A stretch of 16,123 nucleotides of DNA from IMG/VR virus record IMGVR_UViG_2541047805_000004; one strand, 5' to 3'. The notes under the pieces are model-generated. The model did no database searches. It saw only the letters and a program-made list of their open reading frames with translations, and was not told the DNA's origin. Position 1 is the first letter of the stretch. Each line of letters starts with the position of its first letter. The DNA is from a virus. Lineage: Duplodnaviria > Heunggongvirae > Uroviricota > Caudoviricetes. Of this stretch, positions 6,006-16,123 are shown one piece after another. Position numbers and translations under genes: made by a program.

Positions 6006-6594
6006 AACCCCACCTCGCAGACAAAGCGGGTGTAAATTGAGGGAATACAACGTATCGCAAAAAAGCAGAAACGTAACAGACTCGGAGTCAGTGAATAACT
6101 CAGGTATTGAGTTATCAGCTAATATCGAGACTCAAAAAATGGAAAAACCAGCTCGACGGCGGGTTTAAGCTGTGTGACGAAGTAACCACTCTTAACAGCA
6201 TAACCAATTTTTTACGTACGTAAACCACTGAATGATATTTATGAGAATGCTACCGAGTGTTCAAAACACCACCACAAATACATAAGAAAACCTCAACAAA
6301 TAACCAATAAATAATTTCCGGCGTTATTTTTAGTTAATTTAAATTAAACCATCGAATTATAGACCCCCCCATAAATAACAGCCATTAATATAAATTAGCT
6401 AATAGGTTTATTTTTGTTCAAATAAGAGCCATAAATAGGTTTCGATAGAAAAAGTTCAGATAAAAATAGAGATCTACTTCACAAATTAAATGAGAAACTA
6501 AAACTTACATCTTGAAATAATCACATTGATTAGATGAATATTTATCGCGCAGTGACATCATTTTTTAATAATAGTTCAAAAAAAAGGGCTCACG

Positions 6595-7677
6595 ATGAAA
6601 AAATTAACAGTGGCAATTTCTGCTGTAGCTGCATCAGTACTGATGGCGATGTCTGCTCAGGCAGCTGAAATTTATAATAAAGACAGTAACAAGCTGGATC
6701 TGTACGGGAAAGTTAATGCTAAGCACTACTTCTCCTCTAATGATGCAGATGATGGTGATACTACTTATGCCCGTCTTGGCTTCAAAGGTGAAACCCAAAT
6801 CAACGATCAACTGACTGGTTTCGGTCAGTGGGAATATGAATTCAAAGGCAACCGCGCTGAATCTCAAGGTTCCTCCAAAGATAAAACCCGTCTTGCCTTC
6901 GCTGGCCTGAAATTCGGTGACTACGGCTCCATCGATTACGGCCGTAACTACGGTGTAGCATACGACATCGGTGCGTGGACTGACGTCCTGCCAGAATTCG
7001 GTGGTGACACTTGGACTCAAACAGATGTGTTCATGACTGGTCGCACCACTGGTGTTGCAACTTATCGTAACAACGACTTCTTTGGTCTGGTTGATGGTCT
7101 GAACTTTGCTGCTCAGTATCAGGGTAAAAATGACCGCACTGACGTAACTGAAGCTAATGGTGATGGTTTCGGTTTCTCCACTACTTATGAGTATGAAGGA
7201 TTCGGTGTAGGTGCAACCTATGCTAAATCTGATCGCACTAATAATCAGGTTATCTACGGTAACAACGGTCTGAATGCTTCTGGTCAAAATGCTGAAGTAT
7301 GGGCAGCTGGTCTGAAATATGATGCGAACAACATCTATCTGGCCACCACCTATTCTGAAACCCAGAACATGACTGTTTTTGGTAATAACCATATTGCCAA
7401 CAAAGCACAAAACTTCGAAGCTGTTGCACAATATCAGTTCGACTTCGGCCTGCGTCCATCCGTTGCTTACCTGCATTCTAAAGGAAAAGACTTGGGTGTT
7501 TGGGGTGATCAGGACCTGGTTGAATATGTTGATGTAGGTGCAACCTATTACTTCAACAAAAATATGTCCACTTTTGTTGACTACAAAATCAACCTGATTG
7601 ATAAGAGCGATTTCACGAAAGCATCTGGCGTTGCTACCGATGATATCGTTGCTGTAGGTATGGTTTACCAGTTCTAA
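6595..7677 (+). CDS. nmpC: OmpC/OmpF-family general porin (NmpC/OmpD-like), apparently intact
   Basis: 360-aa ORF with signal peptide [23 protein letters not shown]|AEIYNKD, porin hallmarks throughout, and a C-terminal aromatic residue (…VYQF). AAGGG RBS before the ATG at 6595. It lies between Q and the holin on the opposite strand, the position of nmpC in DLP12. Confidence 0.9.
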
Positions 7678-7687
7678 TTTGATTACT

Positions 7688-7727
7688 AAAAGATATGTTG
7701 TGGGAGGCTTTGCCTCCCCAACATATA
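7688..7727 (-). terminator. Predicted tR'-like intrinsic terminator for the short late leader transcript
   Basis: The minus strand reads ATATGTTGGGGAGGC AAA GCCTCCCACAACATAT followed by CTTTTAG: a long GC-rich stem with a T-run. Its position about 100-170 nt downstream of Q is analogous to lambda tR'. Confidence 0.5.
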
Positions 7728-7789
7728 AGTGGCTCCCTCAAGCCACTTCCTTTAGAAGCACAACCTTGCTTCTAACTATACAAACCTTC

Positions 7790-7850
7790 TGTTATATATT
7801 ACCCTTTATTTTTGGGGGCGTTTCAACGCCCCATTTTTAATAACTTTTAG
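7790..7850 (-). promoter_or_regulatory. Predicted late promoter (pR'-like) and Q-utilisation region
   Basis: Immediately downstream of the Q stop, the minus strand has TTGAAA followed 18-19 nt later by TAATAT. Assigned by position and by analogy with lambdoid late regions; the exact start and pause site cannot be fixed from sequence alone. Confidence 0.3.
7814..7838 (+). terminator. Rho-independent terminator of the porin gene
   Basis: GGGGCGTT TCAA CGCCCC followed by ATTTTT on the + strand, about 140 nt after the porin stop. It overlaps the predicted late-promoter region on the opposite strand. Confidence 0.6.
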
Positions 7851-7865
7851 TAAATAATTGGCGTA

Positions 7866-8249
7866 TTAATTAGAGTTATTAACAACGATATCCATCTCTA
7901 ACCGGATATCTAATGCCATTAACATCCCTTCAATTATGCCCTCAGCCTTCTGTAACCTTTTCCCGATATAACCATCAGAGCAGCAATGCTTACCTGCCAG
8001 TGACATGAATGTCATACCGACTACATAATAATCTACTAATAAATCGTGCAAATCGCTGTTGTTCTTTTTCAGACGGGCCATGCACCCGCAAATGATCATC
8101 GCGTCATCGTCACAACATTGCGGGCGAGATTTTACTTTTGAAGGAATTAATCCCTTAAAACCGGCGGCAATGGACGACCAGGTCACATCTTCATGATTAT
8201 TAGCCGCCCACGCTCCCCAACGCTCAAGAACCATCTGAATATCACGCAT
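7866..8249 (-). CDS. quuD: Late-gene antiterminator Q (phage 82/21-type)
   Basis: 127-aa product from the ATG at 8249: [24 protein letters not shown]...[16 protein letters not shown]... (Cys-rich zinc-binding region). I recognise it as DLP12 QuuD. The track ORF starts five codons upstream. Confidence 0.85.
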
Positions 8250-8352: not shown

Positions 8353-8472
8353 CAGGGTTTTGGCGTAATTCTTCAGTATTCGGTAATCGGTCAAAACAGA
8401 ACCGGGGAAACGATATAAGCGCAGACGCCCCCAGCGGTGGCGAAGAAGTTCTGCTATATTAAACTCAAACAT
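8353..8472 (-). CDS. ylcG: Small ORF, YlcG-like
   Basis: Hand translation from the ATG at 8472 (overlapping the rusA stop): [39 protein letters not shown]-stop, 39 aa. It is below the ORF-track size cutoff. Position between rusA and Q matches ylcG in DLP12. Confidence 0.4.
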
Positions 8473-8834
8473 CATTCATTCCCCATTTCGGTGATGGTCA
8501 GTTCCAGCCTCCCACCTTTGGTAACAGGCATCTTCACAACGCGGTAATCAACGACCTGAGCATCATCCAGCCAGAAACCTGCTTTAGTGAGTGCGTCAAA
8601 AGCGGCTTTTTGCAGATTATCCAGGTCACGGCGACGGCGATCCGGCATGTGGCACTCAATGCGGATTTTCACAGGCATAGCCAGGCCGATATCCAGCATT
8701 GCGCTTTTAATGATTCGGGCGACGTTATCGCGGTATGCCTGCCCCTCTGCACTGACGTGCGTGCGCCCGCGATTATGGCGGTAATAGCGATTATTGCTCG
8801 GAGGCCAGGGTAATGTGATACTGTAGGTATTCAC
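8472..8834 (-). CDS. rusA: Holliday junction resolvase RusA
   Basis: 120-aa [45 protein letters not shown]..., recognised as RusA. GTG start at 8834 overlapping the ybcO stop. Confidence 0.9.
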
Positions 8835-9121
8835 GCCTTAATAACCCCCTCTTTCAGCCAGATAACCTGTGTTCTCGCCATACCTTCCAGCGCGCATTCT
8901 TTTGCATATGCAGCATCGACAAAATGTGTGCGGCGGTCGATTTCGTCGTGGCAGGCAGAACATGCAATGGTGGCAATCAGGTCTGGCGGTTTGATACCGG
9001 TACCGCACAATCCAGCCAGCCGGATATGTGCCAGTACAGACGTTTCAGAATTGCCATTACATACGCCAGGGATTCTTACCTGGCATTCCCGACCACGCGC
9101 TGCTTTTCTCAAATCAGCCAT
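8831..9121 (-). CDS. ybcO: YbcO-like protein (DUF1364, putative metal-binding nuclease)
   Basis: 96-aa product from the ATG at 9121 with AAGGAGG RBS: [62 protein letters not shown]... (Cys/His cluster). The track ORF uses an upstream TTG. Confidence 0.8.
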
Positions 9122-9284
9122 GATTCCTCCTTGCTGCCAGTCGCAACCATTTTTTATCAACCAGGCTAGCGGTATATCCGAGCAGTGTTGGTATTTCGGA
9201 TGGCTTCAGCTCAGGCTTACGCTTACGACGATTTGATACTCTGTAGATGTGTCCGTTCATGACACGAATAAGCGGTGTAGCCAT
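9114..9284 (-). CDS. ninE: NinE-like small protein
   Basis: Hand translation from the ATG at 9284 (TAATG overlap with the ybcN stop): [56 protein letters not shown]-stop, 56 aa. It overlaps the ybcO start by 8 nt. Below the ORF-track cutoff. Confidence 0.6.
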   Translation of the reverse strand: MATPLIRVMNGHIYRVSNRRKRKPELKPSEIPTLLGYTASLVDKKWLRLAARRNHG

Positions 9285-9739
9285 TACGCCTCCTGCTTGT
9301 CGCGGAGCAGCTGGAACTCGCAGCTCTGCGGAATAGTCAGGTGGCAGCCAATATTCACCGCCCAGGCTTCAACCTTACACAGGAAGACATACATCTCTCC
9401 GGTATCAAGATCGGAGGTATGGCGTAACGACTGGATAGTGGTGATATCACCGGTTACGACATCAACCAGGTCTTTGGTTTCATAACCGAGATATGTGTGT
9501 TTGAGAGCATCTTTTACCCAAGCTGGAGTGGCGAACGTTTTACCCCTGCTGATGAGGTATTCACTGATTTCGCTGTACCACATGTGGCTGAGTGCATTCT
9601 GGGAAAGACTGCGTTTCTCACGCCACGGTTTAAGCACCATGCGAAAGCATTTGCCCTCCTCCAGATAAGGCTGGATCTGCCGACCGATAGCGGTGAAGTT
9701 GCCGCGATGTAATTTGATGCCGTCTTGTGAGAGGTTCAC
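9284..9739 (-). CDS. ybcN: NinB-family recombination protein (YbcN-like)
   Basis: 151-aa ORF with GTG start at 9739 and GGAGGTG RBS 5 nt upstream. It contains ...[22 protein letters not shown]..., resembling the NinB core. Confidence 0.8.
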
Positions 9740-9837
9740 GCTTCACCTCCGCAGAGGTCAAACGCTAGATGCAAAGAATTGCAGGTGCATTTCTGCATCT
9801 GTGAAGGGAGAAGAGAGTTTGGATTGTATGTGCGCAT
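9736..9837 (-). CDS. ylcH: Small ORF (33 aa), possibly YlcH-like
   Basis: Hand translation from the ATG at 9837: [33 protein letters not shown]-stop. Length and position (between ybcM and ybcN) match ylcH of DLP12, but the sequence itself has no recognisable features and coding potential is uncertain. Confidence 0.25.
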
Positions 9838-9860
9838 AAACGTCCCCGTTTAGCGCAGAA

Positions 9861-9889
9861 GTCACCGGAGTTGTTCAGGCTCCGGTGAC
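9861..9889 (-). terminator. GC-rich stem-loop downstream of ybcM (possible terminator with weak U-tract)
   Basis: gtcaccggag ttgttcagg ctccggtgac: a perfect 10-bp stem with a 9-nt loop, about 65 nt after the ybcM stop. The T-run is poor on both strands. Confidence 0.3.
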
Positions 9890-9953
9890 ATAATTATGCC
9901 GTGTTGATTTCCCAAAATCAAAATCGATAGAATTGCTCCTTCTTAAAACACTT

Positions 9954-10751
9954 TTACTCTCTGGAAGCTTTTCTTATCTCTCTTGGTGTTATATTAAAAC
10001 GATTATGAAATCTTTCAGTAAAACGAGAAGGACACTTATAACCATTTTCTCTGGCAATCTCGCTTATAGGTTTTACCGTCGTTTGTATAGCAGACAACGC
10101 ATTATTTAACCTCACATCGTCCAGTATACTTTGGAAACTTACCCCCTCGCTTGCTAGACGGCGATGTAATGTAGAAACAGAAATGTAGAGATATCGAGCA
10201 ACCTTGTTTGCTGTCCATTTTGTGCCGGGTTCGGATAGCAGCAGGTTATAACAACGACTTATCAATGATTGTTTACTATATGATAAAAGTAAATGATTAA
10301 CATGATTCACTCCTAACGAAAGTAGAACGCCCATTGCTAAGTGCTCCTGAATTTTAGTTGAGAAGCCTCGGGAAACAGATGTTTTTAGTTGCTCCCAACA
10401 ATATATTAACTCAGGATTCTGAGGTAAAAAGAAACTTGTTTTGTTACGTATTTGATCAGTTACCGTATAAAGTTTTTGGAAACTCTCAATTAAATCAATG
10501 GGTAAGTAAAGCATTTCTGCAAGATAAAGCCCTGCTTCAGGATAATTCTCAATATAAAATTCATAACCACAAGGAAATAATATTATTTGATTATTATCAA
10601 CAGTTAAAGTATGCGTCTCCCAATTGATAACTTTCTTTCCCTGACGGATACGACACAAAGCTGGCATAAGAGGCTTAACCCTATGAATCTCATGATGTTT
10701 ATGCATCCGTATTTCTTCGATCTTTAAGTTAGTCTTACCTCTTGCCAGCAT
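9954..10751 (-). CDS. ybcM: AraC/XylS-family transcriptional regulator
   Basis: 265-aa ORF. The C-terminal region (...[41 protein letters not shown]...[29 protein letters not shown]) is a typical AraC-type double-HTH domain. Low GC. ATG at 10751. Confidence 0.85.
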
Positions 10752-10760
10752 ACTCTCACC

Positions 10761-11312
10761 CTACTTTATCTCATAAACTGGTGTTATCTCAGCGGTTGCG
10801 ATTTTATTAGCATTAAGCATATAACCAACTAACGCTCCGCTGGAGTTAGAATCTACAGGAATCTTTTCAGTTTTTAGAGCCCATACTTTAAACTGGTAAT
10901 GATGTGGTTTATCTCCTTTAGGAGGACATGCGCCACCAAACCCAGCATAGCCAAAATCATTTCGGCCTTGAACAGCACCAGTCGGCAGTTTTGTTCCATC
11001 ACGTCTCCCTGCATCAACGGGCAAATATGTTATTGTTGCTGGAATATTAACAACAGTCCAATGCCACCAACCACTGCCTGTAGGTGCATCTGGATCATAT
11101 ACAGTTACGGCAAAGCTTTTGGTACCTTCAGGAACACCAGACCAGGTTAATGAGGGCGATGTATTACCACCTTCACACCCAAATCCAGAAAAGACATGAG
11201 ACGTTGTAAGTTGCTCTCCTGTTTTTATTTCATTACTAGTGACCTGAAATGCTGCAGCCTGCGCAGAAAATGTTATGAATGCCAATACAGTTGAAACGAT
11301 AAGTGTTTTCAT
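10761..11312 (-). CDS. ybcL: Periplasmic PEBP/RKIP-family protein (YbcL-like)
   Basis: 183-aa ORF with signal peptide MKTLIVSTVLAFITFSAQA|AAFQ. It has the PEBP-like motif region ...VYDPDAPTGSGWWHW...HHYQFKVWAL. AAGAGG RBS. It is 10 bp upstream of ybcM in the same orientation, so the two probably form an operon. Confidence 0.85.
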   Translation of the reverse strand: MKTLIVSTVLAFITFSAQAAAFQVTSNEIKTGEQLTTSHVFSGFGCEGGNTSPSLTWSGVPEGTKSFAVTVYDPDAPTGSGWWHWTVVNIPATITYLPVDAGRRDGTKLPTGAVQGRNDFGYAGFGGACPPKGDKPHHYQFKVWALKTEKIPVDSNSSGALVGYMLNANKIATAEITPVYEIK

Positions 11313-11528
11313 AAAAACCTCTTTGTTATGACCTATCGTTATTTTATTTGATATTCCTTTATCTCATTATGCATAAAGGCGCAATGTTTATGCAAAAGCA
11401 ATCACAATTGTACCCCCAACCCAATTATTTGCCACAATATACACAAAGCACATTGATACTATCTAAAAACTCTGCTTTATTATTAGTAATACCTACGAAA
11501 GTCGGTGTTATTTTTTAACCTACCATTC

Positions 11529-11578
11529 AAAATACGTGACATACACCATTTTGCTCATAATAATTTGTCACGTATTTT
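11529..11578. repeat. 50-bp element: perfect 13-bp inverted repeats (AAAATACGTGACA / TGTCACGTATTTT) flanking a 24-bp AT-rich spacer
   Basis: Read directly from the sequence: 11529-11541 and 11566-11578 are exact reverse complements. It lies in the intergenic region between the ybcK stop (11777) and the ybcL start (11312). Confidence 0.8.
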
Positions 11579-11776
11579 CAGTATTTGAATCTGCGACCAA
11601 GAGTTCTCACCTAACAAATGATTAAGATTGTATAGCTCATTTACTACCCCAATACAGCCGTACAAAACTCGCTTGTGGGAGCAAACAAAGTAATTACCCA
11701 TTAAGTTTCGTCAAAGATAATTAATTCTGTCTTGCACTTTATCACCATAGCATAACTTAAAATCCGAGATCATTAT

Positions 11777-13303
11777 TTAGAAATAAATCTCACCATCAAC
11801 CATATATTTGAGAGCACTTATCGCCTGCTGGGCGGATATTACTTTCATTAAAGGATAGTGTTTAAAAACAATGCCATTCATAAAATAGATATCACAGGTT
11901 TTATTATCCGTATTAATTATGATTTTTTCGAATGTTTTATAGGCAAGTGTACGGCATAACTCTCGTCCATTTTTACTGGTTAAGTCAATAGCATAAAAAT
12001 CACTGAATGAATTTACACCTTTACTCTTCAAAGTTTTCAATGATACCGAAGCCCTTCGTAATTCCTTATCTAATAGTCTTATTTTCTCTGCTATAGCGGT
12101 AACTTCAGGCGCGACAGACAATGCAACGATTAAATTATTAATTTTCATCTGAAGCTCAATAATTTTTAACTCTAAAGTTTCATTAGCATCTTTCTTGTTT
12201 TCAACTGGTTGAATTTTGCTACAATTAAAAAGCAATTCATTAATGATATTATAATCAACCAAATCTCTTTTTATTGATGGCCTGTCACATCGATGTAATC
12301 TTCTCATCGGACAAACATAATAGCCATGCAAACTTCCAGATACCGCATGAACAATCATGGTATTACCACAAGCCTCACACTTCATAACTGTTCGAAGTAG
12401 ATTTATTAGCATAGGATTCTTGCTACTATTGCTAATACCAAAAGGTGCCAACCGAATTTCCTGTACAGCGTAAAACAAATCATCTGATATAACTCTGGGA
12501 TAATAGCCAGCGATTTCACTTATCCCTTTCCCTCTTGCACGATATGAAGGTACGCATATACCTATCAGAGCTTTATTCGCTAATAATTTTTCAATTACAG
12601 AAGGTCCCCATGCACTTTCTTTTCCTGAGAAATTCTTTACAGCATGATCATTTAAATACTTGGCTATTGCATTCAATGAGCGCCTTTCCATCCTGAGTTT
12701 AAAAATTAGCTCAATAGTTTTCACCCTGTCGGGGTCTGGAACAAAAGCCGTTCTTTTGTCATCTAAGGAGAGCCATCTCGGACAAGACGCCGTCATAATC
12801 GTACCTGATTCCATTGCATCCTGCCGTTTTTTCTTCCATGATAATTTAACCCGACTTGACTTTATCTCGCTTTCTTCATTTGCCCTTTGTGCTATAAGTA
12901 TGGCTTTTATTAATGAATATGGCTCATTCAAAGAGTCAATATTATAGACTGTATTGTCGCAAAGAGTTATAACATCAATACCGTGATTCAAAATCAATTT
13001 CAGACGTTCAATCGCTTCACCGACTTTTTCTCTTGAAAGTCTGTCCAGACTTTCAACTAACAATGTAGTTCCTGGCAATATATAACCATGCTCTATAGCA
13101 TCTAAAAATTCCGAAAAAGCTCCTGATTGTGCATGCTTTCCTTTGAATGCACTTAATCCTAAATCTTCATATGTTATGGTATCAAGATAATAATCACTAT
13201 TTACCTTTAACCATTCAGCAATAAGTCTTCTCTGTCGGTTTAATGAGTCACCAGACATCTGACCTGGTGATGAAAATCGCATATATGCTATGGCTTTTTT
13301 CAT
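11777..13303 (-). CDS. ybcK: Large serine recombinase (resolvase/invertase N-terminal catalytic domain plus recombinase and zinc-ribbon domains)
   Basis: 508-aa ORF. N-terminus AIAYMRFSSPGQ (catalytic Ser context) and LVESLDRLSRE (resolvase motif); a C-terminal Cys cluster (CEACGNTM...YYVCPMRRLHRCD) followed by a coiled-coil-like region. Very low GC. ATG at 13303 with AGGTG RBS. Confidence 0.85.
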   Translation of the reverse strand: MKKAIAYMRFSSPGQMSGDSLNRQRRLIAEWLKVNSDYYLDTITYEDLGLSAFKGKHAQSGAFSEFLDAIEHGYILPGTTLLVESLDRLSREKVGEAIERLKLILNHGIDVITLCDNTVYNIDSLNEPYSLIKAILIAQRANEESEIKSSRVKLSWKKKRQDAMESGTIMTASCPRWLSLDDKRTAFVPDPDRVKTIELIFKLRMERRSLNAIAKYLNDHAVKNFSGKESAWGPSVIEKLLANKALIGICVPSYRARGKGISEIAGYYPRVISDDLFYAVQEIRLAPFGISNSSKNPMLINLLRTVMKCEACGNTMIVHAVSGSLHGYYVCPMRRLHRCDRPSIKRDLVDYNIINELLFNCSKIQPVENKKDANETLELKIIELQMKINNLIVALSVAPEVTAIAEKIRLLDKELRRASVSLKTLKSKGVNSFSDFYAIDLTSKNGRELCRTLAYKTFEKIIINTDNKTCDIYFMNGIVFKHYPLMKVISAQQAISALKYMVDGEIYF

Positions 13304-13487
13304 GGTGACACCTGCTAACGTATGCTTTTATAAACCTTAGTGGTGGGATATAATTTTTGTTTAATTTTTATTTAAAAAGACAATTAAGGTCACATTATCT
13401 TGAATATACAACAATAATCGTATTGCAATTTTCTTACGCCATAATCTTGAAAGCACAAAAGAATACATAAAAAATAAAGACATTAAC

Positions 13488-13527
13488 AAAAAGCATAAAA
13501 CGAGGCTCATATAAATATAAGAGCCTC
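13488..13527 (-). terminator. Predicted rho-independent terminator of emrE
   Basis: About 30 nt after the emrE stop, the minus strand reads GAGGCTC...(12-nt AT loop)...GAGCCTC followed by GTTTTATGCTTTTTG. The stem is 7 bp with a long loop, so this is a moderate call. Confidence 0.45.
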
Positions 13528-13557
13528 CATATTTTAGTCGTTTAGAAACAAATTATT

Positions 13558-13890
13558 TTAATGTGGTGTGCTTCGTGACAATAAATTAATAACCAACACA
13601 CCGGCACAAATCAACATCATGCCTATAATGGCTGGCAGGTCCAGCCGTTGGCCGAAAAATCCCCATGACAGTAAACTAATCAGGACAATACCGACTCCTG
13701 ACCAGATAGCATAAGCAATCCCTGTAGGAATATAAGCCAGCGTCTGAGCTAATAACCAGAATGATGCACAATAACAAATAATTGTACCAACAGATGGCCA
13801 TAACCGTGTAAAACCTTCTGAAAACTTCATTAAGGTTGTACCAATGACCTCTGCAAGTATTGCACCACCAAGATAAATATAAGGGTTCAT
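13558..13890 (-). CDS. emrE: SMR-family multidrug efflux transporter EmrE
   Basis: 110-aa product from the ATG at 13890 (AGGAAAG RBS): MNPYIYLGGAILAEVIGTTLMKFSEGFTRLWPSVGTIICYCASFWLLAQTLAYIPTGIAYAIWSGVGIVLISLLSWGFFGQRLDLPAIIGMMLICAGVLVINLLSRSTPH. Four TM helices and the conserved membrane-embedded Glu (AEVIG). The track ORF includes an upstream in-frame extension. Confidence 0.9.
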   Translation of the reverse strand: MNPYIYLGGAILAEVIGTTLMKFSEGFTRLWPSVGTIICYCASFWLLAQTLAYIPTGIAYAIWSGVGIVLISLLSWGFFGQRLDLPAIIGMMLICAGVLVINLLSRSTPH

Positions 13891-13905
13891 AGCATATTCT
13901 TTCCT

Positions 13906-13940
13906 GTTCAAACTGGAGAGAATTGTACTACAGTTTGAAC
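13906..13940 (-). promoter_or_regulatory. Perfect 10-bp stem / 15-nt loop hairpin immediately upstream of the emrE RBS
   Basis: gttcaaactg (13906-13915) and cagtttgaac (13931-13940) are exact reverse complements. On the minus strand the hairpin ends about 1 nt before the emrE Shine-Dalgarno and lies 18-50 nt after the ren stop. Confidence 0.5.
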
Positions 13941-13957
13941 TCAACTCACCTGTTTCA

Positions 13958-14260
13958 TCATTGTGTTCCCATTGATGTTCTTTTATATACCCTCAATACC
14001 CGTTTCATCGCGGCACTCTGGCGACACTCCTTAAAAATCAGATTCGTGCTCACCTTTCCTTCCCGTTCTTCTCTGGTAGCGAACCGGTAATACACCGTTC
14101 GCCAGACCTTACCATCAACGACCAGGATTCCTGCCCGCGCCATTTTAGCCGCAGCCTGATTTATGCTGGTTACGGTTGCGCCTGTTACCGCGGCAACGTC
14201 CTGTGCACAGAAGCTCTTATGCGTCCCCAGGTAATGAATAATTGCCTCTTTGCCCGTCAT
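13958..14260 (-). CDS. ren: Ren protein (lambda Ren-like)
   Basis: 100-aa ORF MTGKEAIIHYLGTHKSFCAQDVAAVTGATVTSINQAAAKMARAGILVVDGKVWRTVYYRFATREEREGK..., recognised as lambda Ren. The ATG at 14260 overlaps the P stop, as in lambda. Confidence 0.85.
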   Translation of the reverse strand: MTGKEAIIHYLGTHKSFCAQDVAAVTGATVTSINQAAAKMARAGILVVDGKVWRTVYYRFATREEREGKVSTNLIFKECRQSAAMKRVLRVYKRTSMGTQ

Positions 14261-14958
14261 ACACTTGCTCCTTTCAGTCCGAACTTAGCTTTAATTTCTG
14301 CGATCTTCGCCAGAGCCTGTGCACGATTTAGAGGTCTACCGCCCATAACAGGAAGTTGTTTTACTGGTTCAGGTATCGTCTCACCACGGTTAATTCGCGC
14401 TGTCATACAGGTCAGTTCATCGGCAGCCTTGCGCCGTAATTCCGCGTCAGTCAGCGCATTGGCCCGCATGTTCTGGTACAAGTTGGTAACCAACCAGTAA
14501 TGCGCGTTCGATTTCCACGGATAAGACTCTGCATCCGGATACAGGCCACGCTTCCGGCAATACTCGTAAACCATATCAACCAGCTCGCTGACGTTTGGCA
14601 GCCCGGCGTTAACAGATGCTTCTTCCCGGCACCAGGCGACAAACTGCCCGGGTGATGGCAGGAATGGTCGATTCTGCCGACGGGCTACGCGCATTCCAGC
14701 GTTAACCTGTTCCATTGTGGTGATCCCGTTTTCCCGGAAAGCCAGAACCCACTGGCGGCGGATTTCGTTCAGTTCATTCTGGTCACGGTTAGCCAGGCTC
14801 GCCGGGAAAGTTGCCAGTAACTGGCTTAACACACCGTTGATGATCTGCGCTACCTGCTGTACCTGTGGCTTTTCGTCGTACTGTTCCGGCATGTTGTTGG
14901 CGATCCGGCGCATCTGCTCACAGTCAAAGTTAACCATCTGTGCGGCGATGTTTTTCAT
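14257..14958 (-). CDS. P: Replication protein P (DnaB helicase loader), apparently full length
   Basis: 233-aa ORF MKNIAAQMVNFDCEQMRRIANNMPEQYDEKPQVQQVAQIINGV...KAKFGLKGASV, recognised as lambda P at lambda P length. The ATG at 14958 overlaps the end of the O reading frame. Confidence 0.9.
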   Translation of the reverse strand: MKNIAAQMVNFDCEQMRRIANNMPEQYDEKPQVQQVAQIINGVLSQLLATFPASLANRDQNELNEIRRQWVLAFRENGITTMEQVNAGMRVARRQNRPFLPSPGQFVAWCREEASVNAGLPNVSELVDMVYEYCRKRGLYPDAESYPWKSNAHYWLVTNLYQNMRANALTDAELRRKAADELTCMTARINRGETIPEPVKQLPVMGGRPLNRAQALAKIAEIKAKFGLKGASV

Positions 14959-15425
14959 AGCTCCACCCCGTAAATCCAGTCAGTGTTCGTCAGGTCGAGT
15001 TTTGGTTTGCTGGCAGTCACACCAGCCTGTTGCTTGTTACGGTTGATTTCGAGTTGGGTCCACTTGTCGCGGAGTTTGGCCGGACTTAGCACGTTACCGG
15101 ACCAGAAGTTGTCCTGGCATGCCCAGCGGAACAGCACGCACATGTCGCGGTGGTTACGTCCGTCACGTTCACGCATCAGGCGGATATCGTTAGCCCACCC
15201 TGCAAAATTCGGTTTTCTGGCTGATGGCGCGATGGTCTTCACCATGTCAAACATCCACTCTGCGGCGGTCAGGTCTTCTGCTGTCCCCCACCTGCTGCCG
15301 CTCTGAATTGCAGCATCTGGTTTCTCCACAGGAAGATCGTTTTCTGGTTGGTCAGAGGATTCGCCAGAATTCTCGGACGAAAAAGGTTTTATATTGTCTT
15401 TTGTTAGTTTGTCTTTTGTGTTTAC
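14955..15425 (-). pseudogene. O: Replication initiator O, 3' fragment only (ori AT-rich region and C-terminal P-interacting domain); iterons and N-terminal domain absent
   Basis: The frame ending ...KPKLDLTNTDWIYGVEL-stop is open upstream to about 15518 with no ATG. Minus-strand sequence from about 15420 downward (ACAAAAGACAAACTAACAAAAGACAATATAAAACC...GAGAATTCTGGCGAATCCTCTGACCA...) matches my recollection of the lambda ori AT-rich region and the downstream O coding sequence. Sequence above about 15425 is unrelated. Confidence 0.7.
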
Positions 15426-15565
15426 CTGATTCGGGTAAACGCCTTTACCCCAGCTTCGGCTTCGCGGAGAATACTGATGATCTGTTCGTCGGAAAAACGC
15501 TTCTTCATGGGGATGTCCTCATGTGGCTTATGAAGACATTACTAACATCGGGGTGTACTAATCAA
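15422..15565 (-). mobile_element. Remnant of an IS3-family insertion sequence (left end plus the first ~21 codons of the transposase OrfA) at the int/O deletion junction
   Basis: The minus-strand ATG at 15508 encodes MKKRFSDEQIISILREAEAGV..., a typical N-terminus of IS3-family OrfA (HTH_Tnp_1) proteins. The frame then hits a stop after 28 codons, where the sequence becomes the lambda ori region. About 55 bp upstream of the ATG, a TGATTAG... sequence is consistent with an IS terminus. Boundaries are approximate. Confidence 0.35.
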
Positions 15566-15577
15566 CGGGGAGCAGGT

Positions 15578-16123
15578 CAGAGATCAAGACTTACGGCTGA
15601 CGAATACCTGAAAATTTATCAAGCAGCAGAATCATCACCATGTTGGCTCAGACTTGCAATGGAACTGGCTGTTGTTACCGGGCAACGAGTTGGTGATTTA
15701 TGCGAAATGAAGTGGTCTGATATCGTAGATGGATATCTTTATGTCGAGCAAAGCAAAACAGGCGTAAAAATTGCCATCCCAACAACATTGCATGTTGATG
15801 CTCTCGGGATATCAATGAAGGAAACACTTGATAAATGCAAAGAGATTCTTGGCGGAGAAACCATAATTGCATCTACTCGTCGTGAACCGCTTTCATCCGG
15901 CACAGTATCAAGGTATTTTATGCGCGCACGAAAAGCATCAGGTCTTTCCTTCGAAGGGGATCCGCCTACCTTTCACGAGTTGCGCAGTTTGTCTGCAAGA
16001 CTCTATGAGAAGCAGATAAGCGATAAGTTTGCTCAACATCTTCTCGGGCATAAGTCGGACACCATGGCATCACAGTATCGTGATGACAGAGGCAGGGAGT
16101 GGGACAAAATTGAAATCAAATAA
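15578..16123 (+). pseudogene. int: Lambda-like tyrosine integrase, C-terminal catalytic-domain fragment (N-terminal arm- and core-binding domains deleted)
   Basis: From about 15580 to the stop at 16121-16123 the translation (RSRLTADEYLKIYQAAESSPCWLRLAMELAVVTGQRVGDLCEMKWSDIVDGYLYVEQSKTGVKIAIPT...HELRSLSARLYEKQISDKFAQHLLGHKSDTMASQYRDDRGREWDKIEIK) matches my recollection of about the last 180 residues of lambda Int, including the catalytic R-H-R-Y region. The upstream part of the track ORF (15224-15577) is antisense to O and IS sequence and has no Int similarity. Confidence 0.85.

Follow-up and report, generated by a model that had tools for sequence, protein, structure and literature searches.

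A probable stack of separately inherited cargo modules in the ren-ylcH slot of a DLP12-type lambdoid prophage

Lambdoid phages carry morons, lysogenic-conversion cargo genes lodged in hypervariable slots, such as bor and lom of phage lambda. Recombinase-associated cassette systems comprise integron cassettes, the ccr elements of SCCmec and the Tn4451-type serine-recombinase transposons. In the present work, we examine a locus that has been read in terms of the latter: a low-GC (guanine plus cytosine) interval of IMG/VR virus record IMGVR_UViG_2541047805_000004, a stretch of 16,123 nucleotides hereafter called the window, in which the genes emrE, ybcK, ybcL and ybcM lie on the minus strand between the phage backbone genes ren and ylcH. 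The original prediction took these four genes for one cassette mobilised by YbcK, a large serine recombinase. Comparison with related prophages and with 5426 complete Escherichia coli genomes leads us to another account, in which we have considerable confidence: the interval is made up of cargo modules, stacked but inherited separately, that occupy the ren-ylcH slot of a DLP12-type lambdoid prophage.

Between positions 10405 and 14171, the window shares 99.7% nucleotide identity with the DLP12 region of E. coli K-12 MG1655. The same genes follow one another in the same order, emrE (b0543), ylcJ, ybcK (b0544), ybcL (b0545) and ybcM (b0546), with ren and P as neighbours on one side and ylcH, ybcN, ninE, ybcO, rusA and quuD on the other. 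The two prophages differ in location: DLP12 resides at argU, whereas the window prophage, which has a lambda-type integrase, lies between ybhB and ybhC; the open reading frame (ORF; 15224-16123) of this integrase stands in an att-lambda (lambda attachment) context. They also differ in ren, which is interrupted by IS3 in K-12 (renD) and intact in the window, where the nmpC-like porin ORF (6595-7677) is full length. An identical four-gene block is present in the complete Escherichia phages PhiR70_1 and PhiR68_2.

Searches against protein families, together with the ORF list, identify the four low-GC genes between ren and ylcH/ninB, all of them present on the minus strand where the original prediction had placed them and with domain and family scores that agree with its assignments. 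The position that it gave the block, between ren and the nin genes, stands as well, with ren on one side and ylcH and ybcN on the other. The variable interval runs from 9923 to 13957, comparative genomics setting its right limit at about 13957-13994. Its GC content is 0.362, versus 0.509 in the left flank (8400-9922) and 0.535 in the right flank (13958-15300), which bears out the low-GC claim; individual values are 0.36 for ybcM, 0.42 for ybcL, 0.35 for ybcK, 0.25 for ylcJ and 0.41 for emrE. The block had been delimited as 9954-13944. The first of these positions is indeed the end of ybcM, whereas the second is the TTG codon of a maximal ORF, the true start of emrE being the annotated and structurally verified ATG at 13890. 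Two small annotated genes, ylcJ and ylcH, had gone unmentioned.

The distribution of the genes among E. coli genomes carries the argument for separate inheritance. The whole interval, at 80% coverage or more, is found in 670 of the 5426 genomes, and the non-coding spacer designated segment B (here taken as 11468-11735) in 675, once per genome and in no other context, so that all four genes occur together in about 670-675. The pair ybcK-ylcJ is present in 1427 genomes and an emrE joined to ren in 1411, and ybcK stands without ybcL-ybcM in some 750. The series ren-emrE-ylcJ-ybcK is thus carried by about 1400 genomes, roughly half of which continue into other cargo or into none. The alternative cargo 3' of ybcK may be an alpha/beta hydrolase gene on the opposite strand, or a P22AR C-terminal fragment accompanied by one of three different hypothetical genes; some ybcK prophages have only 280 bp downstream of the gene. 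Prophages that share the backbone and lack both emrE and ybcK have yet other genes in the same slot. A third arrangement, in which ybcL is joined directly to emrE without ybcK, sits beside fliE in 2594 genomes. Two loci of Shigella that the genome scan had returned (L024 and L025) were excluded, their matches being split across reading frames.

These combinations bear directly on the single-cassette reading, in which the four genes form one unit that YbcK excises and inserts. The block does contain a large serine recombinase that is full length and intact in its catalytic residues, its base composition is foreign throughout, and its arrangement hardly varies among about 675 genomes. However, other gene combinations occur in thousands of genomes, and among the 5426 genomes the four-gene block was found solely in the ren-ylcH slot of lambdoid prophages and at no other site. 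The boundary sequences, described below, resemble one another no more than shuffled sequences do, and the left junction is the same in prophages devoid of ybcK. The comparison of ren-ninB intervals that had been put forward as a check found the genes occurring independently, with junctions that show no repeats beyond chance, which largely goes against the cassette, although their relative order is constant across all combinations. We consider a single YbcK-driven cassette extremely improbable, and the original prediction as a whole is partly supported.

The junctions themselves are uniform on one side only. The left limit of homology falls at 9922/9923 in every comparison, including those with the ybcK-less loci L007 and L008, while the right limit lies at 13966, 13994 or 14232 depending on the relative. 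Other boundaries are located at about 11705-11735, at 11467/11468, at 13550/13551 and at 13966-13994. No att-like direct or inverted repeat rose above shuffled sequence at any pair of boundaries, whether those of the whole block, of the ybcK module, of the ybcL-ybcM module or the endpoints of the deletion that separates the fliE-linked trio from the window. The best match between boundary 20-mers was 15/20, a value reached in 5 of 100 shuffles before correction for eight tests, and a repeat search across the window reported no boundary pair.

An inverted repeat, TTGAT-N8-ATCAA (9904..9921), adjoins the universal left junction. Each of the 11 related loci in the alignment with the window contains it, the arms being conserved and the loops variable; in the copy at the fliE locus (L002), the two arms have changed in a matched fashion (TTTAT..ATAAA), and the window has a single exact occurrence of the motif. 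Because the repeat is also found in the ybcK-less L007 and L008, it belongs to the phage backbone and lends no support to a role of YbcK. A second copy lies at the start of a cro-like gene in some prophages, which made a repressor operator conceivable, but the operator-like repeats at that gene start belong to another type (GCAAT), and this interpretation was rejected.

The fliE-linked arrangement is best understood as a remnant of such a prophage. Located in the yedK-fliE interval (L002 8001-10153; L006 3305-7154), it keeps the counterpart of window positions 9737-11467, that is ylcH, ybcM, ybcL and the region upstream of ybcL, together with 13551-13966, a stretch that takes in emrE, the spacer separating it from ren and 9 bp of ren itself. 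Beyond these, the remnant still has either 103 bp from the 3' end of quuD or, in L006, the whole nmpC-like porin region with the porin gene and the quuD 3' end (window 6265-7964). Lost are ybcK, the segment from quuD to ybcN and everything beyond ren. Since scraps of phage backbone flank the cargo genes, the locus is a decayed prophage and not a source from which phages acquired them. The remaining cargo genes are under purifying selection, with ratios of nonsynonymous to synonymous substitution rates (dN/dS) between the window and the fliE-locus copy of 0.124 for ybcM, 0.088 for ybcL and 0.011 for emrE. With a remnant reduced to its cargo in about half of E. coli genomes, the locus offers a clean example of prophage domestication. 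According to a conference abstract (PMC9966839), YbcM represses genes for motility and promotes those for biofilm, the former being of note next to the location beside fliE.

The existence of this trio raises the question of whether emrE-ybcL-ybcM was the ancestral state, into whose emrE-ybcL spacer an element of about 2.08 kb, made of ylcJ, ybcK and segment B and equipped with its own recombinase, was later inserted. The trio is indeed the more widespread arrangement, with its 2594 genomes and an occurrence in Escherichia albertii, where it lies beside a tyrosine integrase. It is also the more diverged, at about 90% identity to the window in L002, and the segment that it lacks (11468-13550) holds both the recombinase gene and a perfect palindrome of 50 bp. 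Several observations argue against insertion. A direct ybcL-emrE junction is found in none of the 12 matching records of the phage collection, ren-linked emrE and ybcK are almost equally frequent, and emrE-ylcJ-ybcK forms one continuous homologous block in prophages carrying other cargo. No att-like repeats flank positions 11467 and 13551, which share only a short AT-rich microhomology, ATTATT. Finally, because other large deletions have occurred in the fliE remnant, one further deletion is the simpler account of the trio. We regard insertion into an ancestral trio as unlikely, and a deletion of ylcJ-ybcK-B as the more probable event.

Taken together, the preferred account of stacked modules would be as follows. 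At least three modules can be distinguished: emrE-ylcJ-ybcK, which appears constant in the prophage context; segment B; and ybcL-ybcM together with the operator and promoter region that belongs to the pair. They would have been assembled by ordinary mosaic recombination between phages at conserved backbone boundaries, namely 9922/9923 next to ylcH and the 3' end of ren. Each module would function alone: EmrE in export, the ybcLM operon in producing a periplasmic PEBP protein, and an intact YbcK kept low in K-12 by a Rho-dependent leader terminator. The host-beneficial genes emrE, ybcL and ybcM, sometimes joined by the nmpC-like porin, outlast the decay of the phage, as in the fliE remnant.

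Three points weigh against this account, beside the chance-level promoter and terminator scans reported below. Its order of events is inferred, and ybcK may have been lost from a four-gene ancestor or gained by a three-gene one. The apparent constancy of emrE-ylcJ-ybcK follows from the counts of 1427 for ybcK-ylcJ and 1411 for ren-linked emrE, a near-equality of totals rather than a genome-by-genome matching. Moreover, the strong purifying selection acting on ybcK, described hereafter, implies a function that lies outside the account.

The gene ybcK (11777..13303, minus strand) is intact and encodes a protein of 508 amino acids (aa) with three Pfam domains: PF00239 Resolvase (69.3 bits), PF07508 Recombinase (54 bits) and PF13408 Zn_ribbon_recom (33 bits). 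In an alignment of 30 YbcK family sequences, residues R9, S11, D87, R88 and R91 are invariant, and at least 90% of the homologues retain C309, C312, C331 and C339. A search of the PDB with the single YbcK sequence gave no match at E<=0.001, whereas the family profile matched 9dxd (4e-21) and 4kis (2.7e-16), the serine integrases of SPbeta and A118, through the coiled-coil region. This architecture and these conserved residues mark YbcK as a genuine large serine recombinase. None of the seven copies compared is disrupted, and dN/dS values range from 0.03 to 0.2 in all but one nearly identical pair; this purifying selection indicates that the protein is maintained.

What YbcK does for these prophages is less obvious. 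The gene sits in the nin region, and its carrier prophages possess tyrosine integrases at argU, at icd or beside ybhC; since a lambda-type tyrosine Int is present, YbcK is not the prophage integrase. Homologues with 40-60% identity are found in other enterobacterial prophages: in the nin region in Pantoea, at a prophage end in Atlantibacter and between two prophages in Yersinia. The Atlantibacter homologue (L011, 7001-8530 and 8530-10002), 59% identical to YbcK, is the last gene of a Mu/P2-like prophage and immediately precedes the smpB locus; it might be the actual integrase of that prophage. The leader of ybcK contains a Rho-dependent terminator in K-12 (PMC4150792), and the only phenotype found in the literature searched is terpene tolerance upon overexpression (PMC7181518). 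Within this leader lies ylcJ (13361..13510, minus strand), a small hydrophobic ORF of 49 aa recognised by the Pfam family YlcJ (120.8 bits) and likewise placed between emrE and ybcK in the K-12 annotation. Its product is very hydrophobic, and some relatives (L005, L016 and L019) have a shorter (123 nt) or frameshifted version of the gene.

Could YbcK instead act on its surroundings? It might service the adjacent slot in the manner of an integron, swapping the cargo that lies 3' of the ybcK gene. The point at which cargo becomes diverse is about 70 bp past the ybcK stop codon, the gene is under purifying selection although the prophages possess a tyrosine integrase of their own, and the palindrome, a perfect 13-24-13 inverted repeat of 50 bp located some 200 bp downstream of ybcK (11529-11578), has the geometry of a serine-integrase att site. 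However, the far boundary at 9922/9923 is identical in ybcK-less prophages, which also carry diverse cargo, and no motif is common to the two ends of the cargo. The palindrome lies in segment B, which extends from 11468 to about 11705-11735, occurs in the four-gene arrangement only, is at least 95% identical wherever it is present and is absent from the fliE trio and from other ybcK prophages. The repeat is accordingly confined to the 675 genomes with that arrangement, is missing from all other ybcK loci and has no partner site. Its half-site is not enriched in the window. The palindrome is the one candidate YbcK site, and may be att-like. Segment B folds as RNA with a z-score of -2.57, and since the hairpin formed by the palindrome ends in a U-rich stretch, a terminator is an equally good reading of the repeat. 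Another inverted repeat, adjoining the ybcK stop codon in loci of the L003 type, was rejected because it is not conserved in those of the L004 type. Servicing of the adjacent slot is, on these grounds, highly improbable.

A broader proposal is that YbcK-family recombinases perform a conserved accessory function in lambdoid and other enterobacterial prophages with tyrosine integrases, an active YbcK rearranging or exchanging the cargo next to it or offering a second route of integration at 11529-11578 or at a site of another kind that has escaped recognition. We hold this to be very unlikely. If true, the ren-nin slot would be a cargo dock serviced by a recombinase and not a passive hotspot of mosaic recombination. 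Under the stacked-module account, YbcK stands out as the one real puzzle of the locus: a conserved large serine recombinase in phages that do not need it for integration.

The gene ybcL (10761..11312, minus strand) encodes a periplasmic PEBP/RKIP-like protein, as judged from Pfam (PF01161 PEBP, 143 bits), NCBIfam (NF007330, 399.8 versus a cut-off of 277) and the PDB, where the match to 1fux starts at residue 20, consistent with a signal peptide. It is followed, after 9 bp, by ybcM (9954..10751, minus strand), the second gene of the ybcLM operon, whose product is an AraC-family regulator with a double helix-turn-helix at its C-terminus according to Pfam (PF12833 HTH_18, 61.5 bits versus a cut-off of 33.6; PF00165 HTH_AraC, 29.1 bits versus 26.6). 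The N-terminal part of YbcM matches ExsA_N only, at 20.5 bits and below the cut-off of 27. By chromatin immunoprecipitation with exonuclease digestion (ChIP-exo), YbcM was found at 12 sites, of which by far the strongest (signal/noise 357), bound by RNA polymerase, is upstream of the ybcLM operon; deletion of ybcM lowers survival in hydrogen peroxide about eightfold (PMC8464067).

Projected through K-12 by way of locus L026, with the metR site as a control, the strongest ChIP-exo site (570015-570048 in NC_000913.2 numbering) corresponds to window positions 11379-11412 or thereabouts, which would on our mapping be the YbcM site. These positions fall within the region upstream of ybcL (11313..11467, minus strand), whose homology to the fliE trio continues through 11467 and which travels with ybcL-ybcM in every context. 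In Plesiomonas, ybcL-ybcM stand alone between housekeeping genes (ASCH/eptA and ychF-pth-prs), free of emrE and ybcK. The original prediction had described the AraC-PEBP pair as a self-contained regulated module, and the 9-bp gap, the ChIP-exo site and the solitary pair in Plesiomonas all concur: ybcLM is a self-contained, autoregulated pair. Scans of the block returned 17 promoter-like matches versus 15.1 in shuffled sequence and 4 terminator-like matches versus 2.5, hence no excess; as these scans are at chance level, autonomous transcription draws on the published data and not on the sequence of the window. Variants of YbcL in uropathogenic strains suppress neutrophil migration, according to a review (PMC4810123).

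The gene emrE (13558..13890, minus strand) encodes a small multidrug resistance (SMR) multidrug/H+ antiporter of 110 aa. It is recognised by NCBIfam (SMR_efflux_EmrE, 240.6 versus a cut-off of 226) and aligns over its full length (1-110) with PDB 3b5d; it is a four-helix protein, and the essential membrane-embedded residue Glu14 is visible in MNPYIYLGGAILAE. The transporter is a textbook one and exports toxic cationic compounds in a proton-coupled manner. EmrE, YbcL and YbcM have all been studied directly: a crystal structure and a role in uropathogenic strains have been described for YbcL, and a regulon has been mapped for YbcM. The gene block is real, yet the locus, made of named genes studied in their own right, is already known, ordinary and by itself of little consequence; the comparative detail is what is useful.

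Several features surround the modules. On the nin side, the small backbone ORF ylcH (9736..9837, minus strand), annotated in every related prophage, overlaps the start of ybcN (9284-9739), a NinB-family gene, and is the end marker of the cargo slot. Upstream of ylcH, at about 9856-9884 on the minus strand, a GC-rich hairpin (GTCACCGGAG-N9-CTCCGGTGAC) is conserved in most of the aligned related prophages. The region 9838-9930 folds with a z-score of -3.07, and the hairpin may serve the nin genes that follow as a signal for processing, antitermination or termination. On the other side, ren (13958..14260, minus strand) is annotated as such in identical prophages. Between its stop codon and the ribosome-binding site of emrE lies an inverted repeat with 13-nt arms and a 9-nt spacer (13906..13940), which folds no better than shuffled sequence (z-score -0.43). 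A general scan of the 16,123 nt of the window, to which the result applies, found no structured RNA match in Rfam, and the PADLOC anti-phage defence models matched none of the six proteins.

The window, with junctions at 1488/1490 and 15446-15449, spans a whole cryptic prophage lying between ybhB and ybhC; the chromosomal neighbour ybhB and the cargo gene ybcL are paralogues. Compared with L027, its closest relative, the window prophage has undergone two further deletions, one removing part of the terminase region and the other extending from the N-terminus of O through the early-left genes, the latter abutting a truncated O (14955-15329) on a truncated lambda-type int (15224-16123). The nmpC/ompC-like porin ORF mentioned above, intact and 360 aa long, lies on the plus strand (6595-7677) between the lysis genes and quuD, and is a further cargo gene.

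How, then, does this locus compare with known systems? It resembles the recombinase-associated cassette systems in placing a recombinase beside variable accessory genes, among them an SMR efflux gene, and SMR genes also travel as integron cassettes. It departs from them in that no repeated recombination sites mark the cargo boundaries, a cargo boundary is common to relatives without the recombinase, and the block occupies one prophage slot only. With the large serine integrases of A118, SPbeta (SprA/YokA), phiC31 and TP901-1, YbcK shares the resolvase catalytic domain, the recombinase domain and the zinc ribbon with coiled coil, as well as the conserved catalytic Ser and Arg and the four Cys. 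It differs from them in not lying at a prophage end and in belonging to prophages with a tyrosine integrase of their own; analysis of the window identified neither att sites nor a directionality factor for it.

Morons differ from the present locus in two respects. Several modules are stacked here, one of which, ybcK, encodes a recombinase and is not an obvious host-benefit gene. Moreover, promoters and terminators belonging to the cargo are not evident from the sequence alone, even though ChIP-exo marks the region upstream of ybcL as bound by RNA polymerase (PMC8464067). The likeness is nonetheless extensive: the cargo has a foreign base composition, is inserted between backbone genes at a fixed junction and varies in content among close relatives, and, as with morons, its functions are directed to the host and its genes are retained after the prophage has decayed.

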